A stretch of 64,000 nucleotides of DNA. Source: an uncultured bacterium (GTDB lineage Bacteria > Actinomycetota > Acidimicrobiia > Spongiisociales > UBA5794). The position numbers were made by a program, and so were the translations under genes. A model generated the notes under the pieces. It saw only the letters and a list, made by a program, of their open reading frames with translations. It was not told the origin of the DNA and did not search any database. Below, one piece after another: positions 1-9,030 of the stretch (its first letter is position 1; each line of letters starts with the position of its first letter). The stretch is from assembly GCA_963801165.1 (NCBI GenBank), contig CAWDDT010000005.1:416001-480000 (forward strand), written 5' to 3'.

Positions 1-53
1 TCGAGGCCCATCATCCCCGTGCCAATCACGCCGTAGCGGATCTTGTCCGTCAT
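1..53 (-). CDS. 5' end of a Gfo/Idh/MocA-family NAD-binding oxidoreductase, running off the left edge (possibly an NAD+-dependent sulfoquinovosidase)
   Basis: Reverse complement reads MTDKIRYGVIGTGMMGL, a Rossmann GxGxxG start, with an AAGGAG RBS just upstream. Not in the ORF track because it is truncated. Confidence 0.7.
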   Translation of the reverse strand, partial: MTDKIRYGVIGTGMMGL

Positions 54-82
54 CACTGTCTCCTTGTGCTCGGCCCGAGCAC

Positions 83-1105
83 CTAGTCAGGAATGCCGAG
101 ATACTTGTTGGTCGTCGCCACGGCCTCGGCACCGGTGGCGTGCATTTCCATCGCGGCGCGGACCGCGTCGATCGTCTCGGGGATCGTCACCGACTCCTGT
201 GGGATGTTGATCCCCCACACGACGTCATCGCCGGAGAGACCCACCATCTCTTCCCACAAGCCGATCTCATACATATCGGCCCGTGGGTACTCCATGTACC
301 GCGCCCACTGGAACAGCGAGGCGTTCGAGTTGAAGCCGTCGGCGATCCGGACGACCTTGATGCGCGGGTAGGCCTTGAACGCTTCGAGAGCTCGGTCTAC
401 CGAGATCTTCGCCTTCGGCGTCGCACACAAAGTGATGATGTGTCCGTGGGTGACCGGGGTGTGGATCAAGAGGCCGGTGGCGTCGACACCCTCCATGATG
501 TTCGACAGGTCGACGGCCTGGTGGTTGGGGATCGGCTCCACCTGGAGCACGTTGGTGAGACCACGGTGCGTATCGCCCGGGTCGGCGACACGGCGGATGA
601 TCGTGATGAATACCTTCTCGACCCCCACAGCCTTGTGGATGGCGTCGACGGCGCGGATCAAGCCGGTGGTGTTACACGAGGTCAGCTTGAGGTAGTCCTT
701 ACCGAGACCCTTCTCGTAGTTGACGGTTCCGTGGAAGAACACATCTGCGACAGATCCTGCTTCGCCGCCCTGGAAGACGGCCTTGACGCCCGCGGCGACA
801 TACTTCTCCTTGTTTTTCGCACCGATCCCGCCGGGGGCGGCGTCGAGCATCACATCGACCTCACCGAGGAGATCGTCGAAGTTCCCCGAGACCGGGATAC
901 CCGCTGCTTCCAGCGCCTTTTCGGCACCGTCCATCGCGGTGAACAGCTTGTAGGGCATACCGCGCGCCGCGAGCGCACGCACCGGCAGCGTTGGAGCGAC
1001 ATCGGCCACACCGACCAACTCCATGTCCTCTTGCCGGGCAACGCCGGCGGCGAGCCGGTTGCCGATCACTCCATACCCGGCAACGCCGACCTTCACCTTG
1101 CTCAT
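83..1105 (-). CDS. Type II (archaeal-like) phosphorylating glyceraldehyde-3-phosphate dehydrogenase family protein
   Basis: GYGVIG Rossmann motif, catalytic SCNTTG, RRVADP and C-terminal QESVTIPETIDA match class II GAPDH rather than bacterial GapA. Confidence 0.88.
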   Translation of the reverse strand: MSKVKVGVAGYGVIGNRLAAGVARQEDMELVGVADVAPTLPVRALAARGMPYKLFTAMDGAEKALEAAGIPVSGNFDDLLGEVDVMLDAAPGGIGAKNKEKYVAAGVKAVFQGGEAGSVADVFFHGTVNYEKGLGKDYLKLTSCNTTGLIRAVDAIHKAVGVEKVFITIIRRVADPGDTHRGLTNVLQVEPIPNHQAVDLSNIMEGVDATGLLIHTPVTHGHIITLCATPKAKISVDRALEAFKAYPRIKVVRIADGFNSNASLFQWARYMEYPRADMYEIGLWEEMVGLSGDDVVWGINIPQESVTIPETIDAVRAAMEMHATGAEAVATTNKYLGIPD

Positions 1106-1118
1106 TGCTGTCTCCTCT

Positions 1119-2531
1119 CTATAGATCGATAACGGGGATACCCCAGCGAGCCGCCAGGGCTTCTAGCTCCTCGCGATAGTCGCCGTACACGATTCCGAAG
1201 TGGTGTTCCAGGCCTTCTCTGGCGATGGTCGCGACGATCTCGGGTGCGGGCACGTCGAACTCGACAACGCCTGCAGTTCCCGAGAATGCAAGCGGTTCTT
1301 CGAGCATCGTACCGCCCCCTATGACCAGCGACTGCATCCCTCCTGCCTGGCTCAGCCGGCAGATCGTCACCCTGCCGGGACGCAGGGCGAACTCATTGAG
1401 CAGGGGCAGCTTCCGGTTCGAGTGAATCGTGCCGACCGCGGAACCGTCGTCAGGCGCCATGTGCATCGGGGCGAGCCCGCAGTGCCACATCACACCCGTC
1501 CTGCCCACGATGTCCATCTCCACCAGATCTGCGACAAAGGCAGGCTCGCCTGCGATGTACTGGAGCAACAGAGCAGTTACGTTTCCATAGACGTCGGCCT
1601 CGCAGGTTCCCGGCGTCCCATCGTCGATGAGCATGCTCTGTGGCGAGCAGGCGGCGCCGCCGAACTCGGTGAAGCACTCAGGCCAGCATCTCGTGGCGAC
1701 ACCGGCCCAGGACCGCTCGTCGATCATCTTCTTCAGCCCGCCGTAGAGGCTCAGCGACCTGCCGAGCGACATCTGGTCGAGGCCGTCGAGATCGCCGAGC
1801 GAGGATTCGGCGCGCCTCCTGGTCGCCGCGATGGTCTCGGCAGGTGTTGCGGCCGCCGCGGCGAACATGTCGGCGAGCTGGCTGCGTTCCACCGTCACCC
1901 CGGTCACCGCGGCAAGCGTCCCCGCGTCGTAGCCGCAGGGGTCGAAGCCGGTTGGCCGATCACCGATGACCCCGATCGTCGTCTCCGCCAGACGGGCGGC
2001 AACACCCGCCGCGGTTGTGGCGGCCGCTGCTGTCGTCTCCCGCGCCGGTCTTCTGCGGCTGGCTTCCTGCGTGATGCCCCGGGAGAGAATCTGCTCGATG
2101 TCGGCAACGGCGCCGGGATCGTCTGCGGCGCGGTGAACGTAGGCGAAGCTGCTCGCCGCCCGCACGAGAGCGAACGCGGCCAGGTTCAACCCGCAGAACG
2201 AGTTGAGCCTCAGCCTCCCTCCGGTCCTGGCCTCGGGGAAAGACCAGATGATGATCGGCGTCTCGAACCTCGCCCCGATTGCCTCGGTCATCGACGAGTC
2301 GGTGAACGAAACCTGGAGCAGCAGCAACGCATCGAGGTCGCCGTCGCTGAATTGCTCTAGTGCCAATTCGGTGCTGGCGGCGTCGAAAAGCAGGTCCGTC
2401 GTCCCGATCAACTCGGCATCGAGACCACCCAGGGTCGCCAGCGCCGCGGCCGCTACCTCTTCTGCGTACGGAACGTCGAACGTGGGGCGGGCAAGCGCCA
2501 GCACGCCGAGTCGTCTCCGGGACCGGGTCAT
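1119..2531 (-). CDS. sqvD: L-fucose-isomerase-like protein, probable sulfoquinovose isomerase (SqvD/SftI type)
   Basis: Motifs RPTFD, GGRLRLNS, RCWPE, CEADVYG, WHCG, HSNRK, FSGT and HFGIVYGD resemble Bacillus SqvD as I recall it. Start moved to ATG 2531 (MTRSRRR); the longer ORF overlaps the transaldolase. Confidence 0.75.
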   Translation of the reverse strand: MTRSRRRLGVLALARPTFDVPYAEEVAAAALATLGGLDAELIGTTDLLFDAASTELALEQFSDGDLDALLLLQVSFTDSSMTEAIGARFETPIIIWSFPEARTGGRLRLNSFCGLNLAAFALVRAASSFAYVHRAADDPGAVADIEQILSRGITQEASRRRPARETTAAAATTAAGVAARLAETTIGVIGDRPTGFDPCGYDAGTLAAVTGVTVERSQLADMFAAAAATPAETIAATRRRAESSLGDLDGLDQMSLGRSLSLYGGLKKMIDERSWAGVATRCWPECFTEFGGAACSPQSMLIDDGTPGTCEADVYGNVTALLLQYIAGEPAFVADLVEMDIVGRTGVMWHCGLAPMHMAPDDGSAVGTIHSNRKLPLLNEFALRPGRVTICRLSQAGGMQSLVIGGGTMLEEPLAFSGTAGVVEFDVPAPEIVATIAREGLEHHFGIVYGDYREELEALAARWGIPVIDL

Positions 2532-2535
2532 GGCA

Positions 2536-3198
2536 CTACTCGTAGGGGGTCTCGTCCCAGAATGACTGGAACTTGGCGAGACCCACGTCGGTGTAGGGAT
2601 GGGCGAACGCATCCTGGAAGACAGGCATCCCTGCGGTGACGATGTCGGCACCGACCACGGCGGAGTTGACTATCTGCCTGGCGTTGCGGGCTGCCGCAAC
2701 GATAATCTCGGTCTCGAAGCCGTATACGTCGCGGATCGCCGCCACTTCGTCGACGAAGTGGGTGATCTCCTCACCGTTGCTCTCCTTCCAACCGATGAAC
2801 GGGGAGACGAACGCCGCCCCCATCCGCATCGCCTGGAGGGCTTGGGCCGCTGAGAAGACCAGGGTGAGATTCGAACGGATGCCCTGGTCGGCAAGCTCGA
2901 AGACTGCCTTGAACCCGGGCTCGGTTGCGGGCAGCTTGATGACGAAGTTGGGTGACATGGCGGAGAGCTTCTTCCCCTCGGCGACCATCGTCTTCCAATC
3001 ATCGAGGTGAGGGTTGACCTCCACCGAGATCGGCTTGTCGGTGCCGTCGAAGATGGTGGCGATCTCGTTGATCACCTTGAGGAACGGCTTGCCCGACACC
3101 TGGACGTGACGGGGGTTGGTCGTGACGCCGTCGATATTCCACATCTCGAGGGCGTACTCGATGTCATCGGTCTTGGCACTGTCGAGGAAAAACTTCAC
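2536..3198 (-). CDS. sqvA: Small transaldolase/FSA family protein, probable 6-deoxy-6-sulfofructose transaldolase (SqvA/SftT)
   Basis: FLDSA, DGVTTNPRH, Schiff-base Lys in VIKLP, SPFIGWKE and AARN. The NPRH Arg, GWKE Trp and RN Arg differ from ordinary TalC/FSA (NPSL, GR.DD) and match the sulfonate-binding Arg-Trp-Arg set of SqvA as recalled. Confidence 0.82.
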   Translation of the reverse strand: MKFFLDSAKTDDIEYALEMWNIDGVTTNPRHVQVSGKPFLKVINEIATIFDGTDKPISVEVNPHLDDWKTMVAEGKKLSAMSPNFVIKLPATEPGFKAVFELADQGIRSNLTLVFSAAQALQAMRMGAAFVSPFIGWKESNGEEITHFVDEVAAIRDVYGFETEIIVAAARNARQIVNSAVVGADIVTAGMPVFQDAFAHPYTDVGLAKFQSFWDETPYE

Positions 3199-3207
3199 GT
3201 TTTGCTC

Positions 3208-4140
3208 CTAACTTGTCGTGAGAGTCTGTAGAACGTTGGCAACCGTCACCTCGCTGACGCGGGTGTTCGATTCGGCGGTGAGGCCGGCGATATGGGGGGT
3301 GAGGACGATGTTGTCGAGCCCGGCGAACTTCAGGGCGCCCTCCTCGGTCAGCGGCTCCTCCTCGAATACGTCGAGCGCCGCCCCCGCGAGATGACCCCGG
3401 CGGACGGCATCGGCGAGGGCTACATCGTCGACGACCCCACCCCGGGACGTGTTGATGACCACAGCAGCGGGTGCCAGCCACGCCAGTGCGGCGGCATCGA
3501 GGATGTGCCGGGTATCGGCGGTGAGCGGGACGTGAATGCTCACTGCGTCGCGGCCGGTGAGCAACGACTTCACCGTGTCGTATCTCGTGATCCCCTGCCA
3601 GACAGGGTCGTCGGCAGCTAGGAAGGGGTCGTATGCGGAGACCGTCATGCCGAGGGCGGTCGCCCGCTCGGCGACGAGCCGAGCGATTTCGCCGAAGCCG
3701 ACGAGAGCCAGGCTCTTGCCCGCTGTCTCCCTGCCCTGGAGGTCCGCCCGTGGCCATGATCCACTCAGCATCCGCACCTTCGAGGCATACGCACCCCGAA
3801 ACAACATGAGAAGGGCGGCGATGACGTACTCGGCAACGGCGACGGCGTTGGCTCCGGTGGCCGGATGGACAGCTACCCCACGCCGGGCACAAGCGTCCAG
3901 ATCGATGTTGTCGAGACCGACGCCGAGCCGGCCGACGACACGCAAGCGCGGGGCAGCATCAAGCAGCTCCTCGTCGACCCTGGTTCGGTTGCGAACGATG
4001 ATCGCCTCGGCTTCGGCGAGCTCGGATAGCAACCGGGATCGGTCATCTACGAGGCCGGGATCGAAAGAAAGACTGAACTTTCCCTGCAACGGCTCGAGAG
4101 CATCTCGGCTCATGAATTCGGATACGACTATCTGTGACAT
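3208..4140 (-). CDS. slcC: D-isomer-specific 2-hydroxyacid dehydrogenase, (S)-sulfolactate dehydrogenase SlcC-like
   Basis: N-terminal IVVSEFM, DPGLVDD, IVRNRT, GRLGVGLDNID, PATGANA and TPHIAGLT.ESN.RVS as in the SlcC subfamily; 310 aa with no SerA ACT domain. Confidence 0.7.
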   Translation of the reverse strand: MSQIVVSEFMSRDALEPLQGKFSLSFDPGLVDDRSRLLSELAEAEAIIVRNRTRVDEELLDAAPRLRVVGRLGVGLDNIDLDACARRGVAVHPATGANAVAVAEYVIAALLMLFRGAYASKVRMLSGSWPRADLQGRETAGKSLALVGFGEIARLVAERATALGMTVSAYDPFLAADDPVWQGITRYDTVKSLLTGRDAVSIHVPLTADTRHILDAAALAWLAPAAVVINTSRGGVVDDVALADAVRRGHLAGAALDVFEEEPLTEEGALKFAGLDNIVLTPHIAGLTAESNTRVSEVTVANVLQTLTTS

Positions 4141-4176
4141 CGAGAAACCTCACTGATCTCAACTTAGACTACTACT

Positions 4177-4188
4177 GGAACCGGTTCC
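4177..4188. promoter_or_regulatory. Candidate LacI-family operator
   Basis: Perfect palindrome GGAACCGGTTCC with central CG between the divergent operons; a related half-site TGGAAACGCG lies near 4279-4288. Confidence 0.55.
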
Positions 4189-4323
4189 GTTTTTCAACCG
4201 GAAATCTACGGCAGCTCTCGTCCTCTGGCAGTACATGGATGGACGTGACTTTGAGACAGCGAGGGTCGTCGTTATTGTTGGAAACGCGTCGGCGCTCGGC
4301 CGGCGCTCAAGGAGGAGGACTCC

Positions 4324-5733
4324 ATGAAGCAACTCAAGTGGTTGCTGCTGGTAGTTGTGTTTGCCATGCTCGCTGCGGCGTGCGGCAACGACAGCTCTGG
4401 GGACACAACGACGGCAGCTCCATCGAATACAACTGCGGCGGCTACAACGACAACTGCAGGCAGTACAGAAACCACAATGGCCGAGACCACGACCACCGCA
4501 GGAATGGTCGATCTCACCGGCACCAAGGTGACGGTGTTTGGTCCCGAAGAGACCGCGGCTGAGGCAGGATCGCTGCAGGCGACCCTCGATCTCTTCGCCG
4601 CACAAACCGGCATAGAGATCGTCTACACCGGTGCTCGCGACGCGTCGGATCAGATCAACGCACAGGTAGCCGGCGGCAACCCGCCGGACATCTTCGTGTT
4701 CCCGCAGCCAGGCAAACTGGCCGACTTCGCCCGGCAGGGTGCTCTGTACCCGCTGCCTGACGATGTGCTGGCAACGGTCGCGGCAAACCAGAGTGATGCG
4801 TGGACTTCGTTCGGCAACGTCGACGGTGTCCAGTACGGCATCCCGACCAAGGCCGACCTCAAGTCGCTCGTCTGGTATCAGCCGGCGCGTTTCGCAGCCG
4901 CCGGCTACACGATCCCGCAGACGTGGGACGAGCTCAAGGCCCTCAGCAACCAGATGATCGCCGACGGCAACACGCCGTGGTGTGTCGGCATCGAGTCCGG
5001 CGCCGCCACCGGGTGGCCGTTCACGGACTGGGTCGAGGATCTGATGCTCCGTTACTACGGGCCCGATGTCTACGACCAGTGGGTCTCGCACGAAGTTCCG
5101 TTCTCGGACCAGCGCGTCATCGACGTGTTCAATCAGATCAGGGACCTCTGGGATACCCCCGGAGCGGTATATGCAGCAGGCGGTTCCATCGCTTCCACCG
5201 CTTTTGGTGACAACGGCGAGCCGCTCGTCAACGGCGACTGCTTCATGCACCGCCAGGCGTCGTTCTTCTCGGCCTTCTTCCCGGATGGGACCCCGGTCGC
5301 CGACGGTAGTGATGGCGCAGTTGACGTCTTCTACTTCCCGGCTGTTGATCCGAACACCCACCCGGTGCTTGGTGCCGGTACGTTGGTCGGTGCGTTCCGC
5401 GACGCTCCCGAGGTGTGGGCAGTGATGAACTACTTCGCCACCTCGGAGTACGGTCAGAACCGGCAGAAGCTGCAGGCACTCTCTAAGGGTGGCGGCGGCG
5501 CACTGTCCGGCTTCCTGTCGCCGGCAACGCAGCAGGACATGAGCGTGTACAACCCGCTCGAGCAGTCGTTCCTCGACATTCTGGCGAGTGCGGATGTTGT
5601 CCGATTCGACGGATCCGACCTGATGCCGACAGCCGTCGGCTCGGGCGCCTTCTGGACCGAAGGAACCAGCTTCATCAATGGCCAGGAGGACGCTGCAGCA
5701 GCAACCGCGGCCATCGATGCGGCGTGGCCGTAA
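4324..5733 (+). CDS. Carbohydrate ABC transporter substrate-binding lipoprotein (AglE/GgtB alpha-glucoside type)
   Basis: GGAGG RBS, lipobox LAAAC, Thr-rich linker, PQPG, KSLVWY, WCVGIESGAATGWP.TDWVED, HRQASF and FDGSDLMP. Confidence 0.9.
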   Translation: MKQLKWLLLVVVFAMLAAACGNDSSGDTTTAAPSNTTAAATTTTAGSTETTMAETTTTAGMVDLTGTKVTVFGPEETAAEAGSLQATLDLFAAQTGIEIVYTGARDASDQINAQVAGGNPPDIFVFPQPGKLADFARQGALYPLPDDVLATVAANQSDAWTSFGNVDGVQYGIPTKADLKSLVWYQPARFAAAGYTIPQTWDELKALSNQMIADGNTPWCVGIESGAATGWPFTDWVEDLMLRYYGPDVYDQWVSHEVPFSDQRVIDVFNQIRDLWDTPGAVYAAGGSIASTAFGDNGEPLVNGDCFMHRQASFFSAFFPDGTPVADGSDGAVDVFYFPAVDPNTHPVLGAGTLVGAFRDAPEVWAVMNYFATSEYGQNRQKLQALSKGGGGALSGFLSPATQQDMSVYNPLEQSFLDILASADVVRFDGSDLMPTAVGSGAFWTEGTSFINGQEDAAAATAAIDAAWP

Positions 5734-5762
5734 ACCGATATCGACCGAATAGTTGAGTAAAG

Positions 5763-5796
5763 GCAGGGCGCCGGCACGAAGGTGCCGGCGCCCTGC
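5763..5796 (+). terminator. Intercistronic stem-loop after the binding-protein gene (mRNA stabiliser or attenuator)
   Basis: Perfect 15-bp stem GCAGGGCGCCGGCAC-GAAG-GTGCCGGCGCCCTGC. Confidence 0.75.
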
Positions 5797-5895
5797 GACT
5801 TTCGAGGGTCCGTGCGGGAGAGAAACGGACCGGGCGGCGAGCCGGCGTGAGTCGAATCTTGCGTCTGTTGGTCACCCCCCGAGGATGGGAGGACG

Positions 5896-8004
5896 ATGGA
5901 TCGAGTATTCGCAACATTGATCAGCATCGTGGCCGCGGTCGGCGGTAGCGCGGGGCTGTTCGTCGGAGCCAACAAGCTCTTTGACCTGGCACGAAGCCGG
6001 TACCCGGTCTTTAGCTCCATGATTGGAGCGCTGCTCGGCTTCAGTACCGGGCTCTTGATGTGGGCCAACCGTGTTTCCATAGTGGGCCACGGGCCGCTGG
6101 TCGGTGCCCCGAACCCAACCGGGTTCGTCGCAGCCGTCGACTTCGTGGTGACGCTGGTTGCCAACACCATCGTGCCGACGCTCATCGGTCTGGCCGGGGG
6201 CTGGCTGTACGCCAGGGTGAGCGGGTCGGCCGTCACCTCGACCCAGTACCAGCTCGGTGACCGTGAGGCCGAAGATACGCCCACGACGATGTCGGACAGT
6301 GTCCGGAGGAATCGGTTGCTGGTGGCCATGGCCACCACCGGACTGCTGGGGCTGTGGTTTGCGCTCTTCTACGAGCTGGCCCTGGTGCCGGCGTTCGAGA
6401 TCGGCAAACTCATCATCTGGACGGTTATCGGGCTGGCCATTGCCGCGGCACTCTGGTACACGGGTAAGCGGAGATCGCCGCTCGGAGCCTCACTCGCCCT
6501 CGGCGGAGGCCTCGGTTGGCTCATCGGCACGATGGTCGCCCCCCAACTGGGGGACTTCAAACGGGTGCTGTCTATTGCCGGCATGGATCTAGACGGTGAC
6601 CAGATCTGGACAATTCTGGCGATGGTGATCGGCTTCGTTGCCGTCGGTGCATACATCGGCCTCAAGCCCGTCGCCAGATATCCAACGAGAGACAGAATCG
6701 CCCGGAATTCGCGCGTGTACATATTCCTCGGCCCGGCGCTGCTATTCATCTTCGCCTCGCTGATGCTGCCTGCGTTGCGCACCATCTGGCTGTCGTTCCT
6801 TGGTCCCGACGCGACGCTGCCGCCCACCGAGCGTGCCGCCGGTGGCGTTGACAAGCTTGTCGGGTTGACCAACTACAAGGACGTGTTCAGCGACCCGAAC
6901 AACTGGAATCTGAGCAACTGGTCCGACATCTTTGGCAGTACGCTGTTCTGGGGCGCGATCATCCTGATCGTAGGCGGGGTCATAGCCGGTATCGTGCTGG
7001 GTCGGCAGCGCGGGATGTCGTTCGAGAAATCAGGCGGCTCGCTGGCCCCGATCTCAATCGGTGCGTTCCTGCTGCTCACCTCCCTGTTCGCCGCATTGCG
7101 GGGAACCGTGTTCAACAACCTGTGGTGGGTGGTTGCGGTCACCACCCTGGCAAGCGTGTTCGGTTTGGCAGTCGCCGTGCTGGCGGACAGGGCCAAAATG
7201 GAGAACATCGCCAAATCGCTGATCTTCATGCCGATGGCGATCTCGTTTGTCGGCGCCGGCATCATATGGCGGTTCGTCTACAACGCCAGGGAAGTTCGTC
7301 AGGATCAGACGGGTGTGCTGAATGCCATCTGGGTCGCTCTTGGCCAGCTGTCAAACAGCGGTTGGCCCAAGGTCCTAGCGGCATTGCTGCTTGCAGCCGT
7401 CATCGCAGGCCTGGGTTACATGAGCTGGCGGGGTTATAAGGCAGGGGCGACCGGGCTTTTCGCCGGCTCGCTGGTAACGGCGCTGCCGTTCCTGTACATC
7501 CTGGTACGGCTCCTCACCAACGGTATCGGCGGGTTCTCGGTAGCCGACGACGGCACGATACTCAAAGAGACGATCCTCGTTCGTGAGTCCAGCCCGTACA
7601 ACAACCTGTTCCTGATGGTGGTCCTGATCTGGATCCAGACCGGATTCACGATGGTCATCTTCTCGGCAGCGATCAAGGCGGTCCCCTCTGATCTGATCGA
7701 AGCGTCGAAGGTTGACGGCGCTACCGAGTCGCAGACGTTCTGGCGGGTCACCATCCCGCAGATCGCACCGACGATCGGCGTGGTGATAACAACGCTGATC
7801 GTGTTGGTGATGAAGGTCTTCGACATCGTCAAGGTCATGACAAACGGGAACTTCGACACCCAGGTACTAGCCAACGCCATGTTCACAACCGCCTTCACGA
7901 ACTTCAACTTCGGTAAAGGTTCGGCGCTGGCGGTGCTGATCCTCCTATCGGTGCTCCCGGTGATGATCTTGAACATACGCCGCATGCAGAAGGAGGCCCG
8001 CTGA
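5896..8004 (+). CDS. Sugar ABC transporter permease (AglF-like), enlarged with extra TM segments
   Basis: IFMPMAISFVGAGIIWRF, WIQTGF and EAA loop (EASKVDGA); 702 aa. Confidence 0.88.
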   Translation: MDRVFATLISIVAAVGGSAGLFVGANKLFDLARSRYPVFSSMIGALLGFSTGLLMWANRVSIVGHGPLVGAPNPTGFVAAVDFVVTLVANTIVPTLIGLAGGWLYARVSGSAVTSTQYQLGDREAEDTPTTMSDSVRRNRLLVAMATTGLLGLWFALFYELALVPAFEIGKLIIWTVIGLAIAAALWYTGKRRSPLGASLALGGGLGWLIGTMVAPQLGDFKRVLSIAGMDLDGDQIWTILAMVIGFVAVGAYIGLKPVARYPTRDRIARNSRVYIFLGPALLFIFASLMLPALRTIWLSFLGPDATLPPTERAAGGVDKLVGLTNYKDVFSDPNNWNLSNWSDIFGSTLFWGAIILIVGGVIAGIVLGRQRGMSFEKSGGSLAPISIGAFLLLTSLFAALRGTVFNNLWWVVAVTTLASVFGLAVAVLADRAKMENIAKSLIFMPMAISFVGAGIIWRFVYNAREVRQDQTGVLNAIWVALGQLSNSGWPKVLAALLLAAVIAGLGYMSWRGYKAGATGLFAGSLVTALPFLYILVRLLTNGIGGFSVADDGTILKETILVRESSPYNNLFLMVVLIWIQTGFTMVIFSAAIKAVPSDLIEASKVDGATESQTFWRVTIPQIAPTIGVVITTLIVLVMKVFDIVKVMTNGNFDTQVLANAMFTTAFTNFNFGKGSALAVLILLSVLPVMILNIRRMQKEAR

Positions 8005-8975
8005 TGACCGCAGTCGACGGACGCGCCATGGCCGAGAGGGCGGCAAGCTCCGAGGGTGGCGTCGGGAAACGGATCTACCGCTTCCTGAAGGCAATCCCCA
8101 CGTGGGTCCTTTGGATGCTGGTCATCCTGTGGACCATCCCCAGCTTGGGCCTGCTTGTCAACAGCTTCAGGCCCCGCGACGCCCAAAGGGCGACCGGCTG
8201 GTGGACCACGTTCACCGGCCACGGCGGCGGGTTGACCCTGGCCAACTACAAGGAGGTGCTGAGCGCAGGAGCGACGGGTGGTCTTGGGCAAGCGTTGCTC
8301 AACTCGATGGCGATCGCGATCCCTGCGACCATCATCCCGATTGCAGTAGCGGCCTTCGCCGCATACGCATTCGCCTGGATCGACTTCCGGGGGCGGGAGT
8401 GGCTGTTCATCGCAACGGTCGCCTTGATGTCGATCCCGCTCCAGGTGGCGCTGATCCCGCTGCTCACCACCTACTCGGGCGGTGCGCACTGGACAATCCC
8501 GCTGCTTCACCGAACGCTGACGTTCTTCCCCGACTTCTCCTTATCGGGGACGGTGACGGCAGTGTGGTTGACGCACACCGGATTCGCCTTACCGTTCGCC
8601 ATCTTCCTGCTGCACAACTACATATCCGGCCTACCGGCAGATGTGTTCGAGTCGGCGCGGATCGATGGCGCTGATCACTACAGGATCTTCTGGAGTCTCG
8701 TAGTCCCGCTGTCGGTTCCCGTGCTTGCGGCGTTTGCGATCTTCCAGTTCCTCTGGACTTGGAACGACTACCTGATCGCCTTGACGATGATCGGAGGTAA
8801 TGGCCCAGCCTTCCCGATAACGGTCAAGATCGCCTCGCAGGCGGGCTCGTTCGGTCAGAACGAGCACTTGCTGACGGCGGGTGCGTTCGTCTCGACCGTG
8901 GTACCGCTGGTGGTGTTCTTCTCGCTGCAGCGATACTTCGTCAGAGGGATCCTGGCCGGGTCGGTCAAGGGATAG
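8004..8975 (+). CDS. Sugar ABC transporter permease (AglG-like)
   Basis: AAYAFAW, ESARIDGA, QFLWTWND and LQRYFVRGILAGSVKG; 1-nt overlap with the upstream stop. Confidence 0.9.
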   Translation: MTAVDGRAMAERAASSEGGVGKRIYRFLKAIPTWVLWMLVILWTIPSLGLLVNSFRPRDAQRATGWWTTFTGHGGGLTLANYKEVLSAGATGGLGQALLNSMAIAIPATIIPIAVAAFAAYAFAWIDFRGREWLFIATVALMSIPLQVALIPLLTTYSGGAHWTIPLLHRTLTFFPDFSLSGTVTAVWLTHTGFALPFAIFLLHNYISGLPADVFESARIDGADHYRIFWSLVVPLSVPVLAAFAIFQFLWTWNDYLIALTMIGGNGPAFPITVKIASQAGSFGQNEHLLTAGAFVSTVVPLVVFFSLQRYFVRGILAGSVKG

Positions 8976-8993
8976 AGAAGTTCGAGTCTATGC

Positions 8994-9030
8994 AGAAGGG
9001 CCCCGGGAACCCGGGGCCCTTCTCGTTTTG
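8994..9030. terminator. Intrinsic terminator between the convergent ABC operon and panB
   Basis: 13-bp stem AGAAGGGCCCCGG-GAAC-CCGGGGCCCTTCT followed by CGTTTTG. Confidence 0.8.

Follow-up and report, generated by a model that had tools for sequence, protein, structure and literature searches.

The open reading frame at positions 3208 to 4140 of the window (the whole stretch of 64,000 nucleotides that was analysed, from an uncultured bacterium of the class Acidimicrobiia) occupies exactly these bounds on the minus strand, starts with ATG and encodes 310 amino acids. It stands at the head of an operon with the order slcC-sftT-sftI-gapII-sqgA-suyA-suyB-comC, all on one strand, from which the genes of an ABC importer are transcribed divergently. 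The window's left edge passes through sqgA, the whole gene lying at G000:C5:414974-416056 of the host genome (G000; 4.55 Mb, 98% complete). The features of the locus are:

3208..4140, minus strand: slcC, predicted (S)-sulfolactate dehydrogenase ortholog (310 aa; PF02826, PF00389), operon gene 1
2536..3198, minus strand: sftT, sulfofructose transaldolase homolog (220 aa; PF00923)
1119..2531, minus strand: sftI-like sulfoquinovose isomerase (470 aa; NCBIfam NF048012)
83..1105, minus strand: gapII, type II (archaeal-type) GAPDH homolog (340 aa; NF003251), putative sulfolactaldehyde dehydrogenase
1..56, minus strand: start of sqgA (56 nt), encoding a GH188-like homolog of NAD-dependent sulfoquinovosidases (360 aa; Gfo/Idh/MocA)
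G000:C5:412393-414857, same strand as slcC, just left of the window: suyA, suyB and comC, the operon's final three genes
4141..4323, no strand: control region (183 nt) separating slcC from the divergent transporter genes
4177..4188, no strand: 12-bp perfect palindrome GGAACCGGTTCC, candidate operator (single genome copy)
4324..5733, plus strand: ABC solute-binding protein, family 1 (469 aa; PF01547)
5896..8004, plus strand: long ABC permease (ORF of 702 aa, start not fixed; PF00528)
8004..8975, plus strand: second ABC permease (323 aa; PF00528)
8994..9023, plus strand: terminator-like hairpin closing the transporter operon (13-pair stem and T-rich tail)

Within the eight-gene operon, neighbouring genes overlap by up to 7 nt or lie at most 26 nt apart, the exception being 116 nt ahead of suyA; the gaps from slcC to sqgA measure 4 to 26 nt. 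A simple scan detected no terminator after comC. The original prediction, that an SlcC-like gene is the first cistron and heads a sulfoglycolysis operon, is borne out by this arrangement, since sftT, sftI, gapII and sqgA follow on the same strand and the start of slcC is separated from the divergent binding-protein gene by a gap of 183 nt. The same eight genes occur in the same order, with a divergent transporter, in a genome from another genus of the same family (G198), at 66-90% identity. Sequencing runs that bear the labels salt marsh and soil contain DNA of the operon.

Transporter genes and control region

The solute-binding protein may be a component of an importer of sulfoquinovose (SQ) or SQ glycosides, as its homologs (47-62% identical) flank slcC/sftI/sqgA clusters in six related genomes. 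None of its matches among solved structures is named SQ-binding; these are generic sugar binders, the best of them a chitin-oligosaccharide binding protein (E 1.8e-14). Homologs of the second permease that are 57-72% identical occur in related clusters. In the long permease, PF00528 is confined to residues 530-692, and ORFs of 643-686 aa occupy the position of this gene in genomes G198, G158 and G033. The stem of the hairpin that follows the second permease includes 10 G-C pairs among its 13, with the T-rich tail directly after it.

Within the control region, the palindrome GGAACCGGTTCC was spotted by eye and then counted genome-wide, revealing it to be the sole copy in 4.55 Mb; an automated inverted-repeat search of the same region reported none. 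In G198, the corresponding intergenic region has the same TGGAACCGGTTCCGTT. No gene for a regulator was found. A sigma-70-like site lies on the plus strand at 4251-4278, although the single site found in the 9.2-kb region, compared with 1.5 expected, represents no excess over chance.

Contigs from the RNA libraries of four salt-marsh runs align to the binding-protein gene and the permeases. Those on the binding-protein gene reach a depth of 12-17 in two runs and are approximately 97.6% identical to it, and thus derive from a relative, and short pieces of 151-256 nt align to comC, sqgA, gapII and sftI. No contig from the four libraries aligns to slcC, sftT, suyA or suyB, contigs of this kind being unable to show absence. 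As DNA carry-over is possible in these libraries, no conclusion about expression is drawn in either direction.

Predicted genes for desulfonation

The adjacent genes suyA and suyB, which overlap by 7 nt, are predicted to encode a split lyase pair of the UxaA type. For SuyA (94 aa), the match is to the N-terminal portion of the model for galactarate dehydratase, with a SAF match of just E 0.055, and SuyB (393 aa) contains PF04295 and PF20629 and is 64% identical to homologs of three Cupriavidus species (strain JMP134 not being among them) and 66% identical to those of two Halomonas. ComC matches PF02615 (Ldh_2) with an E value of 3.5e-92. Its best NCBIfam match is NF040650, sulfolactate dehydrogenase, at 182 bits where the cut-off of 500 is not reached, and its top PDB match is a piperideine-2-carboxylate reductase, the sulfolactate dehydrogenase of M. 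jannaschii scoring 122 bits. ComC is 45-59% identical to the Ldh_2 gene that neighbours the slcC homolog at 47 of the 80 loci (42 with SuyB, five with ComC alone). In the published accounts of such modules, inversion from the S to the R form by SlcC and ComC joins sulfoglycolysis, which yields (S)-sulfolactate, to SuyAB, which acts on (R)-sulfolactate (PMC11193023, PMC13436972, PMC12421959).

It had been proposed that this organism may itself continue to desulfonation, for which second-tier degraders have ComC/SuyAB, CuyA or ComDE/Xsc. Homology and gene order favour the first of these routes, as genes for C-S cleavage (suyAB) and comC lie in the operon that slcC heads. Model searches of the 98% complete genome left the best candidates for the other routes below cut-off: 334 bits against 676 for Xsc, 80 against 221 for ComE, and 263 against 289 for the D-cysteine desulfhydrase/CuyA family. 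The operon contains no gene for a sulfite exporter, a sulfite oxidase or a regulator; candidates for the first two are encoded elsewhere. TauE matches exceed the cut-off at five places in the genome outside the operon, which amount to four genes, three of them whole, as two adjacent pieces represent one frame broken by TAG. A 507-aa protein with Oxidored_molyb and Mo-co_dimer domains, of the sulfite-oxidase type, is also encoded.

The sulfolactaldehyde step

Pfam scans found no sulfolactaldehyde dehydrogenase of the PF00171 aldehyde-dehydrogenase type (SftD/SlaB), and no sulfolactaldehyde reductase, among the genes of the operon. The place usually held by this dehydrogenase is occupied by a type II GAPDH homolog, which scores 375 bits to NF003251 (cut-off 185) and 287 bits to TIGR01546 (cut-off 233), aligns with the archaeal GAPDH 2czc at 240.7 bits and keeps the SCNTT cysteine motif. 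The designation of gapII as a putative sulfolactaldehyde dehydrogenase is made by elimination and is the weakest assignment in the operon. A segment that reads PSHH in the archaeal enzymes is PNHQ in gapII; this change was considered as an adaptation to a sulfonated substrate and rejected, because it occurs in 13 of 13 Acidimicrobiia homologs, four of which lie outside SQ operons.

Relatives of gapII that are 72-75% identical belong, in three of the four loci examined, to strings of Iso_dh, gapII and PGK genes that are unrelated to SQ. The host's own string of this kind has lost its gapII, and the genome retains, at C7:74866-76107, a second PGK of the type found as the partner of gapII in relatives. 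Because its relatives reside in such strings and the string in the host is without one, the operon gapII may simply be a GAPDH. A separate type I GAPDH is encoded at C6:424976.

These observations bear on whether the two halves of the operon are connected. The sulfo-TAL part might lead to excretion of a C3 sulfonate while SlcC, ComC and SuyAB serve imported sulfolactate, such that a primary and a secondary degrader have been fused within one cell. The missing aldehyde dehydrogenase and the non-SQ strings of the gapII relatives would fit such an arrangement, and division of labour is the rule in the literature as represented by two of its papers (PMC7491151, PMC13436972). The missing step, however, could be supplied by any of several other aldehyde dehydrogenases in the genome. 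The locus contains a single importer, whose binding protein is the companion of SQ clusters in the six related genomes described above, whereas Pfam scans covering the operon and the flanking DNA revealed no TRAP or other sulfolactate-type transporter, and the eight genes lie tightly spaced on one strand in an order that is kept in G198. We therefore regard two unconnected modules as improbable and favour one continuous route from SQ to sulfite.

Identity of the SlcC-type dehydrogenase

The protein encoded at 3208-4140 contains both domains of the D-isomer-specific 2-hydroxyacid dehydrogenases (PF02826, E 1.8e-49; PF00389, E 3e-27). There is no SlcC model among its NCBIfam matches, the best of which is phosphoglycerate dehydrogenase (PGDH) at 277 bits against a cut-off of 454. 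It is 55-58% identical over its full length to proteins of Modicisalibacter, Vreelandella, Halomonas and Palleronia named (S)-sulfolactate dehydrogenase, and about 21 among the 120 homologs listed (56-76% identity) bear the same name from JGI; the names of its relatives in NCBI and UniRef are automatic. In a quick tree (LG+G4), an SlcC-like clade of 91 rows, with the window protein inside, separates from 15 SerA-like rows with an SH-aLRT of 100. Homologs of SuyB (63-73%) and ComC (45-59%) are also present at 42 of 80 genome-contig loci of SlcC homologs, including two from Halomonas and three from Cupriavidus, and the SlcC homologs at these loci are 51-60% identical to the window protein.

Residues R233, E262 and H283, which we take to be the catalytic triad, are at least 98% conserved across 105 rows. 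The NAD motif G148-x-G150...D171 is likewise conserved, and by the general Rossmann-fold rule this GxGxxG...D171 pattern presumably indicates NAD rather than NADP as the cofactor. Asn51, which lies in the R-x-x-T loop, is invariant across the SlcC clade; the SerA-like rows have Ser at this site. Taken together, these data identify the window ORF as a predicted (S)-sulfolactate dehydrogenase of the SlcC type, with membership of the clade defined by gene context and automatic names.

A protein of this family could instead be an enzyme of the phosphoglycerate, glycerate or hydroxypyruvate type, or could have sulfolactaldehyde or a different sulfonated hydroxyacid as its substrate, with SlcC ancestry that is merely shared. 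Phosphoglycerate dehydrogenase is the best curated model, the top PDB matches are all PGDH, and the database names are automatic. SlcC orthologs moreover head SQ clusters in five related Acidimicrobiia genomes, where neither SuyB nor, at those loci, a ComC homolog turned up. As these five clusters are without SuyB, an slcC gene alone does not imply the SuyAB route. All PGDH models nonetheless fall far below cut-off, the split of the clade from SerA-like proteins of the same class is fully supported and comes with invariant residues of its own, and ComC and SuyAB, which need the product of SlcC, are encoded in the same operon. A function other than sulfolactate oxidation is thus very unlikely for this dehydrogenase, and we retain its assignment to the SlcC type.

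The quick tree places the window protein and its G198 counterpart beside a Salinisphaera protein and not with the remaining Acidimicrobiia rows (SH-aLRT 98). A proteobacterial origin of slcC by horizontal transfer was considered and is not claimed, as an AU test keeps the tree that unites all 15 Acidimicrobiia sequences (lnL higher by 12.6, p 0.60).

Predicted genes for sulfoglycolysis

SftT aligns over its full length with the sulfofructose transaldolase of B. megaterium (BmSF-TAL, PDB 8bc3) at 265.7 bits, compared with 156.6 bits for the best ordinary transaldolase. This alignment keeps the VIK segment, whose lysine is presumably the one that forms the Schiff base. The start of the sftI-like gene was set at Met41 of a 510-aa ORF (1119-2651). 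Its product has a sole NCBIfam match, NF048012 'sulfoquinovose isomerase', at 254.6 bits against a cut-off of 700 and mainly over the C-terminal 290 residues. No solved relative of this isomerase was found, and its ortholog in G198 is 73% identical and holds the same position in the operon.

SqgA has Gfo/Idh/MocA domains across its full length and matches 8qc3 at 309 bits and 8qc2 at 294.5 bits, the next best structure scoring 67.7 bits. These two entries are ArSqgA and FlSqgA, NAD-dependent sulfoquinovosidases of family GH188 in which Arg166 and Lys172 are reported to bind the sulfonate (PMC10755693). SqgA shares the fold of these enzymes, and it resides in an SQ cluster with no GH31 enzyme, which is the setting reported for GH188 (PMC10755693).

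Action of the operon on another sulfosugar or sulfonated glycoside, for example an SQ epimer such as sulfofucose, might be considered given a binding protein that matches no solved SQ-named binder, an isomerase that falls under its cut-off, and a sulfofucose pathway in Paracoccus that also feeds SlcC/ComC/SuyAB (PMC12421959), but is extremely improbable, since the transaldolase and the glycosidase are far closer to solved SQ-specific enzymes than to any others and the Entner-Doudoroff-type enzymes of the known sulfofucose route, as given in that report, were not found here.

Proposed pathway

Homology and gene order together suggest that the eight-gene operon probably specifies the conversion of an SQ glycoside to pyruvate and sulfite within one cell. 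In such a pathway, SqgA would release SQ from glycosides and SftI would isomerise it to sulfofructose. SftT would then transfer the C3 ketol unit to glyceraldehyde-3-phosphate, giving fructose-6-phosphate and (S)-sulfolactaldehyde, which the type II GAPDH homolog may oxidise to (S)-sulfolactate in what is the weakest step of the scheme. NAD-dependent oxidation by SlcC would yield sulfopyruvate, ComC would reduce this to (R)-sulfolactate, and SuyAB would cleave the latter to pyruvate and sulfite. An exporter of the TauE family may carry the sulfite out of the cell, or the sulfite-oxidase-type enzyme may oxidise it; both are encoded outside the operon. The host would in this manner draw on all six SQ carbons and carry out sulfur release on its own, with no need for oxygenases or a partner in cross-feeding.

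(S)-sulfolactaldehyde is the sulfonate analogue of glyceraldehyde-3-phosphate. It is conceivable, though we judge it rather unlikely, that gapII is a phosphorylating sulfolactaldehyde dehydrogenase that produces sulfolactoyl phosphate, from which PGK would then yield sulfolactate and ATP, and that together with SlcC, ComC and SuyAB it provides an oxygen-independent mineralisation of SQ in a single cell. A phosphorylating sulfolactaldehyde step is not known from any described sulfoglycolysis pathway and, if true, would mean that ATP is gained from the sulfonated half of SQ.

Comparison with known systems

The SlcC-ComC-SuyAB module of Chromohalobacter salexigens, which has homologous counterparts in Paracoccus and Cupriavidus, draws on the same three families, namely a D-2-hydroxyacid dehydrogenase, an Ldh_2 protein and a split UxaA-type lyase. 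The pathway logic described for it, in which (S)-sulfolactate is converted to sulfopyruvate, (R)-sulfolactate and finally pyruvate and sulfite, is also the same (PMC11193023, PMC9594981). Modules of this type occur in organisms that take up the sulfolactate of others, whereas here the module is fused to a sulfoglycolysis operon, with slcC first, comC last and no sulfolactate transporter.

An isomerase and a sulfofructose transaldolase are common to the present operon and the sulfo-TAL pathway of Bacillus aryabhattai and B. megaterium (SftI, SftT, SftD). In the Bacillus pathway as reported, an enzyme of the aldehyde dehydrogenase family oxidises sulfolactaldehyde, and sulfolactate is the export product (PMC7491151, PMC12890257). 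By contrast, the operon studied here has a type II GAPDH homolog where the gene for this enzyme would be and a glycosidase that is GH188-like rather than GH31, and its sulfolactate is predicted to be consumed.

In Thermotogae and Chloroflexi, 'extended' sulfo-TAL clusters identified bioinformatically also include sulfolactate lyase and have been read as allowing complete use of SQ carbon (Wei et al., 2022; PMC9594981). The text of that review names only SuyAB in these clusters; the Acidimicrobiia operon includes both predicted inversion dehydrogenases. The idea of a one-cell route gains support from the present locus, yet it is less new than the original prediction supposed, as SuyAB had been placed in sulfo-TAL clusters by this 2022 review (PMC9594981).

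A tandem pathway in Paracoccus wurundjeri, which combines sulfofucose Entner-Doudoroff enzymes with SlcC/ComC/SuyAB, likewise unites cleavage of a sulfosugar to sulfolactaldehyde with desulfonation in one organism and one cluster (PMC12421959). It differs in its substrate (sulfofucose there, SQ here), in its mode of cleavage (Entner-Doudoroff rather than transaldolase) and in the phylum of its host (PMC12421959). The account of that pathway presents proteomic, metabolite and sulfite-release evidence, whereas the operon described here is known from its genes. The same account calls the sulfolactaldehyde dehydrogenase of the Paracoccus pathway 'missing' (PMC12421959). GapII is a candidate for the enzyme so described in the sulfofucose work.

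Distribution and significance

Predicted clusters of sulfo-TAL genes with SuyAB and a demonstrated tandem pathway for sulfofucose are already known. What is new is that the host belongs to the Acidimicrobiia, that an SlcC/ComC pair is built in, and that a type II GAPDH homolog occupies the position usual for a sulfolactaldehyde dehydrogenase. A metagenome scan for closer relatives of slcC gave a best match that is just 58% identical, and none of 80 metagenome slcC loci has a transaldolase or gapII alongside. Sulfo-EMP2-type genes are joined to suyAB-slcC-comC at eight of the 80 loci from Proteobacteria or MAGs and also in two metagenome contigs, suggesting that clusters combining sulfoglycolysis with desulfonation are not rare; a 2025 paper describes the presence of both pathway types in one bacterium as unusual (PMC12421959).

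Sulfoquinovose is produced on a gigaton scale. The accepted picture of its breakdown is a relay, in which primary degraders excrete sulfolactate or DHPS, leaving release of the sulfur to other bacteria. Combined clusters bear on the share of SQ sulfur that truly passes through cross-feeding of this kind. The operon described here represents a compact candidate for a single-cell route from SQ to sulfite, with eight enzymes that are open to testing in vitro.

An operon joining sulfoglycolysis genes to suyAB and comC

The original prediction held that an SlcC-like gene heads a sulfoglycolysis operon in this acidimicrobiial bacterium, which might itself continue from sulfoquinovose (SQ) to desulfonation. 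The reading frame is present on the minus strand and is the first cistron, separated by a 183-nt spacer (4141-4323) from a divergent solute-binding protein gene. The key test, a search for suyAB and comC, is answered because both sit in the operon itself, as its last three genes (C5:412393-414857, on the contig carrying the window), and the proposed continuation to desulfonation is thus supported at the gene level. Genes left of the window (C5:416001-480000 of the source genome, G000) were defined from the 18 kb adjoining its left edge (L002) and an edge-spanning stretch (L130).

Genes of the operon and the divergent binding-protein gene
Window 3208-4140, minus strand: slcC-like; ATG start, 310 aa; PF02826 (E 1.8e-49), PF00389 (E 3e-27)
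Window 2536-3198, minus strand: sftT, small transaldolase
Window 1119-2531, minus strand: SftI-like isomerase; start set at Met41 of a long ORF
Window 83-1105, minus strand: gapII, type II GAPDH homolog
C5:414974-416056, minus strand: sqgA, Gfo/Idh/MocA gene, 360 aa; begins at window 56 and leaves the window
C5:414573-414857, minus strand: suyA-like, 94 aa
C5:413398-414579, minus strand: suyB-like, 393 aa; PF04295 and PF20629
C5:412393-413388, minus strand: comC, Ldh_2 gene; PF02615 (E 3.5e-92)
Window 4324-5733, plus strand: divergent solute-binding protein gene

From slcC to suyA, in the 5′ to 3′ direction, the genes are separated by 9, 4, 13, 26 and 116 nt; suyA and suyB overlap by 7 nt, the suyB-comC gap is 9 nt, and 22 nt lie between the comC stop codon and the end of a convergent peroxiredoxin gene. 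Two permease genes follow the binding-protein gene on the plus strand, and then a strong terminator-like hairpin (8994-9023). The first permease ORF (window 5896-8004) is of unusual length, 702 aa, with its transporter domain confined to residues 530-692, and ORFs of similar length occupy the same position in three related clusters. Genes for an ATPase, a regulator and a sulfite exporter are all absent from the locus. An inositol-type catabolic cluster is located approximately 7 kb to the left of comC (L002:741-7255; G000:C5:398741-405255). Its genes encode IolD (824 bits), an aldolase of the HpcH type, a Gfo/Idh/MocA protein resembling levoglucosan dehydrogenase and, with 40% identity to SlcC, another D-2-hydroxyacid dehydrogenase.

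Assignment of the first gene to the SlcC family

The best curated model for the slcC product is phosphoglycerate dehydrogenase, at 277 bits well under the cut-off of 454, and its top solved relatives are phosphoglycerate dehydrogenases throughout. The JGI name "(S)-sulfolactate dehydrogenase" appears on about 21 of the best 120 homologs listed (56-100% identity); other listed homologs carry NCBI names for hydroxyacid or 3-phosphoglycerate dehydrogenases, and the nearest named sources among those listed are Acidimicrobiia MAGs. When the Halomonas litopenaei ortholog served as query, the characterised Chromohalobacter protein was not among the matches listed; proteins named (S)-sulfolactate dehydrogenase by NCBI or UniRef were found in Modicisalibacter, Vreelandella, Halomonas and Palleronia, and the window protein is 55-58% identical to these over its full length.

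With an alignment of 15 of the listed homologs, genomes were scanned at one per species, and the best 80 loci were kept (51-60% identity to the slcC product). These belong chiefly to Alpha-, Beta- and Gammaproteobacteria, together with some Desulfobacterota and four Acidimicrobiia. Partner genes were sought in the 80 loci by tblastn with the operon proteins (E ≤1e-8, at least half of the query covered, identity floors). Homologs of SuyB (63-73% identical) and ComC (45-59%) occur together in 42 of the 80, including two Halomonas loci, where roughly 3 kb separates suyA-suyB from slcC-comC, and three Cupriavidus loci; ComC alone was found in 5, SQ genes alone in 14, and none of the queried genes in 19, many of which are short contigs.

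A tree of 106 rows was then built from the window protein, the 80 loci, ten same-class orthologs, 14 same-class SerA-like proteins and the genome's nearest paralog. The split between 91 SlcC-like rows and the 15 others received an SH-aLRT value of 100 (quick search, LG+G4). Residues R233, E262 and H283 and the NAD-binding motif are common to the SlcC-like clade and the SerA-like rows, and five invariant positions set the clade apart. One of these is Asn51, a serine in the SerA-like rows, within an R-x-x-T loop that in phosphoglycerate dehydrogenases is presumably the binder of the substrate's anionic group. Phylogeny, gene context and database names support membership of the predicted product in the SlcC family. 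The six SlcC paralogs in the genome are distant (identity ≤40%).

Partner enzymes and candidate sulfite genes

The operon transaldolase matches the solved sulfofructose transaldolase of Bacillus megaterium over its full length at 265.7 bits, compared with 156.6 for the best ordinary transaldolase. The SqgA homolog matches PDB entries 8qc3 and 8qc2 at 309 and 294.5 bits (next match, 67.7), which the data statement of a JACS paper identifies as ArSqgA and FlSqgA, NAD-dependent GH188 sulfoquinovosidases (PMC10755693). The sole NCBIfam match of the SftI-like isomerase is "sulfoquinovose isomerase SftI" (254.6 bits; cut-off 700), and the best for the ComC-like Ldh_2 protein is "L-sulfolactate dehydrogenase" (182 bits, below the cut-off of 500). 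SuyB, ComC, SftT, SftI and SqgA are single-copy in the genome at E 1e-10, with weak paralogs of ComC (30%) and SqgA (23%).

The other desulfonation routes named in the original prediction gave only genome matches below cut-off: 334 bits for Xsc (cut-off 676), 80 for ComE (221) and 263 for the D-cysteine desulfhydrase/CuyA family (289). Two near-equal matches to the last family, at G000:C2:24002-24949 (226.1) and C3:19566-20513 (226.0), may reflect duplicated contigs; the contamination estimate for the genome is 5.6%. As candidates for sulfite export and oxidation, TauE-family and Oxidored_molyb genes occur in the genome, and none is close to the operon. Five places give TauE-family matches above cut-off; at G000:C6:605852-606612 two of them adjoin, separated by a TAG, and form a single broken frame, possibly a broken exporter gene, which leaves four TauE genes, three of them whole. 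Of the two Oxidored_molyb genes, one has a product of 507 aa with an additional Mo-co dimerisation domain.

The sulfolactaldehyde step

No aldehyde-dehydrogenase-family enzyme is encoded among the operon genes, and gapII is therefore the sole in-operon candidate for converting sulfolactaldehyde to sulfolactate. Against both type II GAPDH models its product scores above cut-off (375 versus 185 and 287 versus 233 bits), and it retains the SCNTT cysteine motif in alignment to archaeal enzymes; an ordinary type I GAPDH is encoded elsewhere in the genome. Relatives of gapII with 72-75% identity were examined at four loci, of which three were readable and the fourth, in G118, was not. Those in G146, G078 and, as a second copy, G198 lie in strings of an Iso_dh-family dehydrogenase, type II GAPDH and a second phosphoglycerate kinase, conserved in related genomes (L131:8142-11685; L132; L133:2630-6298). 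The source genome keeps the Iso_dh and PGK members as a pair at C7:74866-77216, where the two matches are 17 nt apart and gapII is absent; its sole copy of that string's type II GAPDH is the gapII of the SQ operon. This arrangement suggests that gapII encodes a phosphorylating enzyme partnered by a kinase. It may act on sulfolactaldehyde to give sulfolactoyl phosphate and then ATP; the evidence equally allows a plain GAPDH. A PSHH to PNHQ change relative to the archaeal enzymes was considered as SQ-related, and is uninformative on SQ because all 13 of the 13 homologs compared share it. We found no report of a GAPDH-type sulfolactaldehyde dehydrogenase in the literature searched, which takes in few subscription journals.

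Distribution among Acidimicrobiia and beyond

Among 201 sampled genomes of the class, counting the source genome, 11 have an SlcC ortholog at ≥50% identity (remaining matches ≤46%), three have SuyB at ≥67%, five have gapII at ≥72%, and two, the source genome and G198, have the sulfofructose-type transaldolase (others ≤41%). G198, which belongs to the same family and another genus, carries these eight genes in identical order with the divergent transporter, at 66-90% identity. In G158, G033, G138, G110 and G007, slcC is followed by genes for a PfkB kinase, a DeoC/LacD aldolase, an SftI-like isomerase and an SqgA-like protein, which by gene content is a sulfo-EMP2-type set; none of the five genomes (95-99% complete) yielded SuyB. 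Near the SlcC orthologs of the remaining four genomes, the queried genes were not found. Judged from these gene sets, slcC is regularly at the head of predicted SQ operons in the class, and the SuyAB route is limited to the source genome and G198 among those examined.

Elsewhere in the Acidimicrobiia, the slcC ortholog is immediately preceded by a threonine-synthase-like gene, which heads the PfkB kinase, DeoC-LacD aldolase, SftI-like and SqgA-like cluster (L125:8273-14926 in G110; L120, L123, L065, L077). Its product reaches 636 bits against NCBIfam PRK08197, compared with 70 against cysteate synthase; identity among the copies is 70-76%, and a separate paralog of about 36% identity is kept in G110 and G158. 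SuyB was not found in the genomes with this arrangement, and the PLP enzyme may offer another way of releasing sulfite, following on from sulfopyruvate and cysteate.

In proteobacterial and MAG loci, pfkB, aldolase, sftI-like and sqgA-like genes are joined with suyA, suyB, slcC and comC (L070:3202-11900; also L018, L029, L036, L058, L075, L078, L092, L137, L139). Such combined sulfoglycolysis and sulfolactate-lyase clusters account for 8 of the 80 genome loci and two metagenome contigs, and therefore look less rare than recent reviews state.

Control region and environmental relatives

A candidate operator is seen 36 nt ahead of the slcC start codon, at 4177-4188: the perfect 12-bp palindrome GGAACCGGTTCC. 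It has a single copy in the 4.55-Mb genome, and a 16-mer around it recurs in the orthologous G198 spacer, which is elsewhere poorly alignable; no regulator gene was found near it.

Words sampled from window 1-9000 matched 20 runs among the matches listed, labelled soil or salt-marsh metagenome; five contain at least half of the sampled words and six are RNA libraries. When contigs of four RNA libraries were compared with C5:411501-425500, the binding-protein gene was covered at depths of 17.3 and 12.5, with 34 differences over some 1400 nt, and coverage extended to parts of the two permease genes; short pieces matched comC, sqgA, gapII and sftI. Those libraries thus contain close relatives.

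Relation to published systems

SlcC/ComC inversion followed by SuyAB is described in C. salexigens (PMC11193023; PMC9594981). The sulfo-TAL pathway is reported from Bacillus and gut Firmicutes, with clusters in single Actinobacteria, Chloroflexi and Thermotogae genomes (PMC7491151), and a 2022 review describes "extended" pathways in which SuyAB lies inside Thermotogae and Chloroflexi sulfo-TAL clusters (PMC9594981). The text of that section presents SuyAB without mention of SlcC or ComC. For Paracoccus, a 2025 study demonstrates a sulfofucose pathway in tandem with SlcC/ComC/SuyAB; it regards coexistence of this kind as unusual and gives the sulfolactaldehyde dehydrogenase as missing (PMC12421959). 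According to a 2026 review, complete one-organism SQ catabolism has not been demonstrated outside oxygenase routes (PMC13436972). Within the same literature scope, we found no report of this operon under sulfoquinovose and Acidimicrobiia. The operon would encode a form of extended sulfoglycolysis, already known in kind, and a predicted one-cell route from SQ to desulfonation in this organism is supported at the level of genes.
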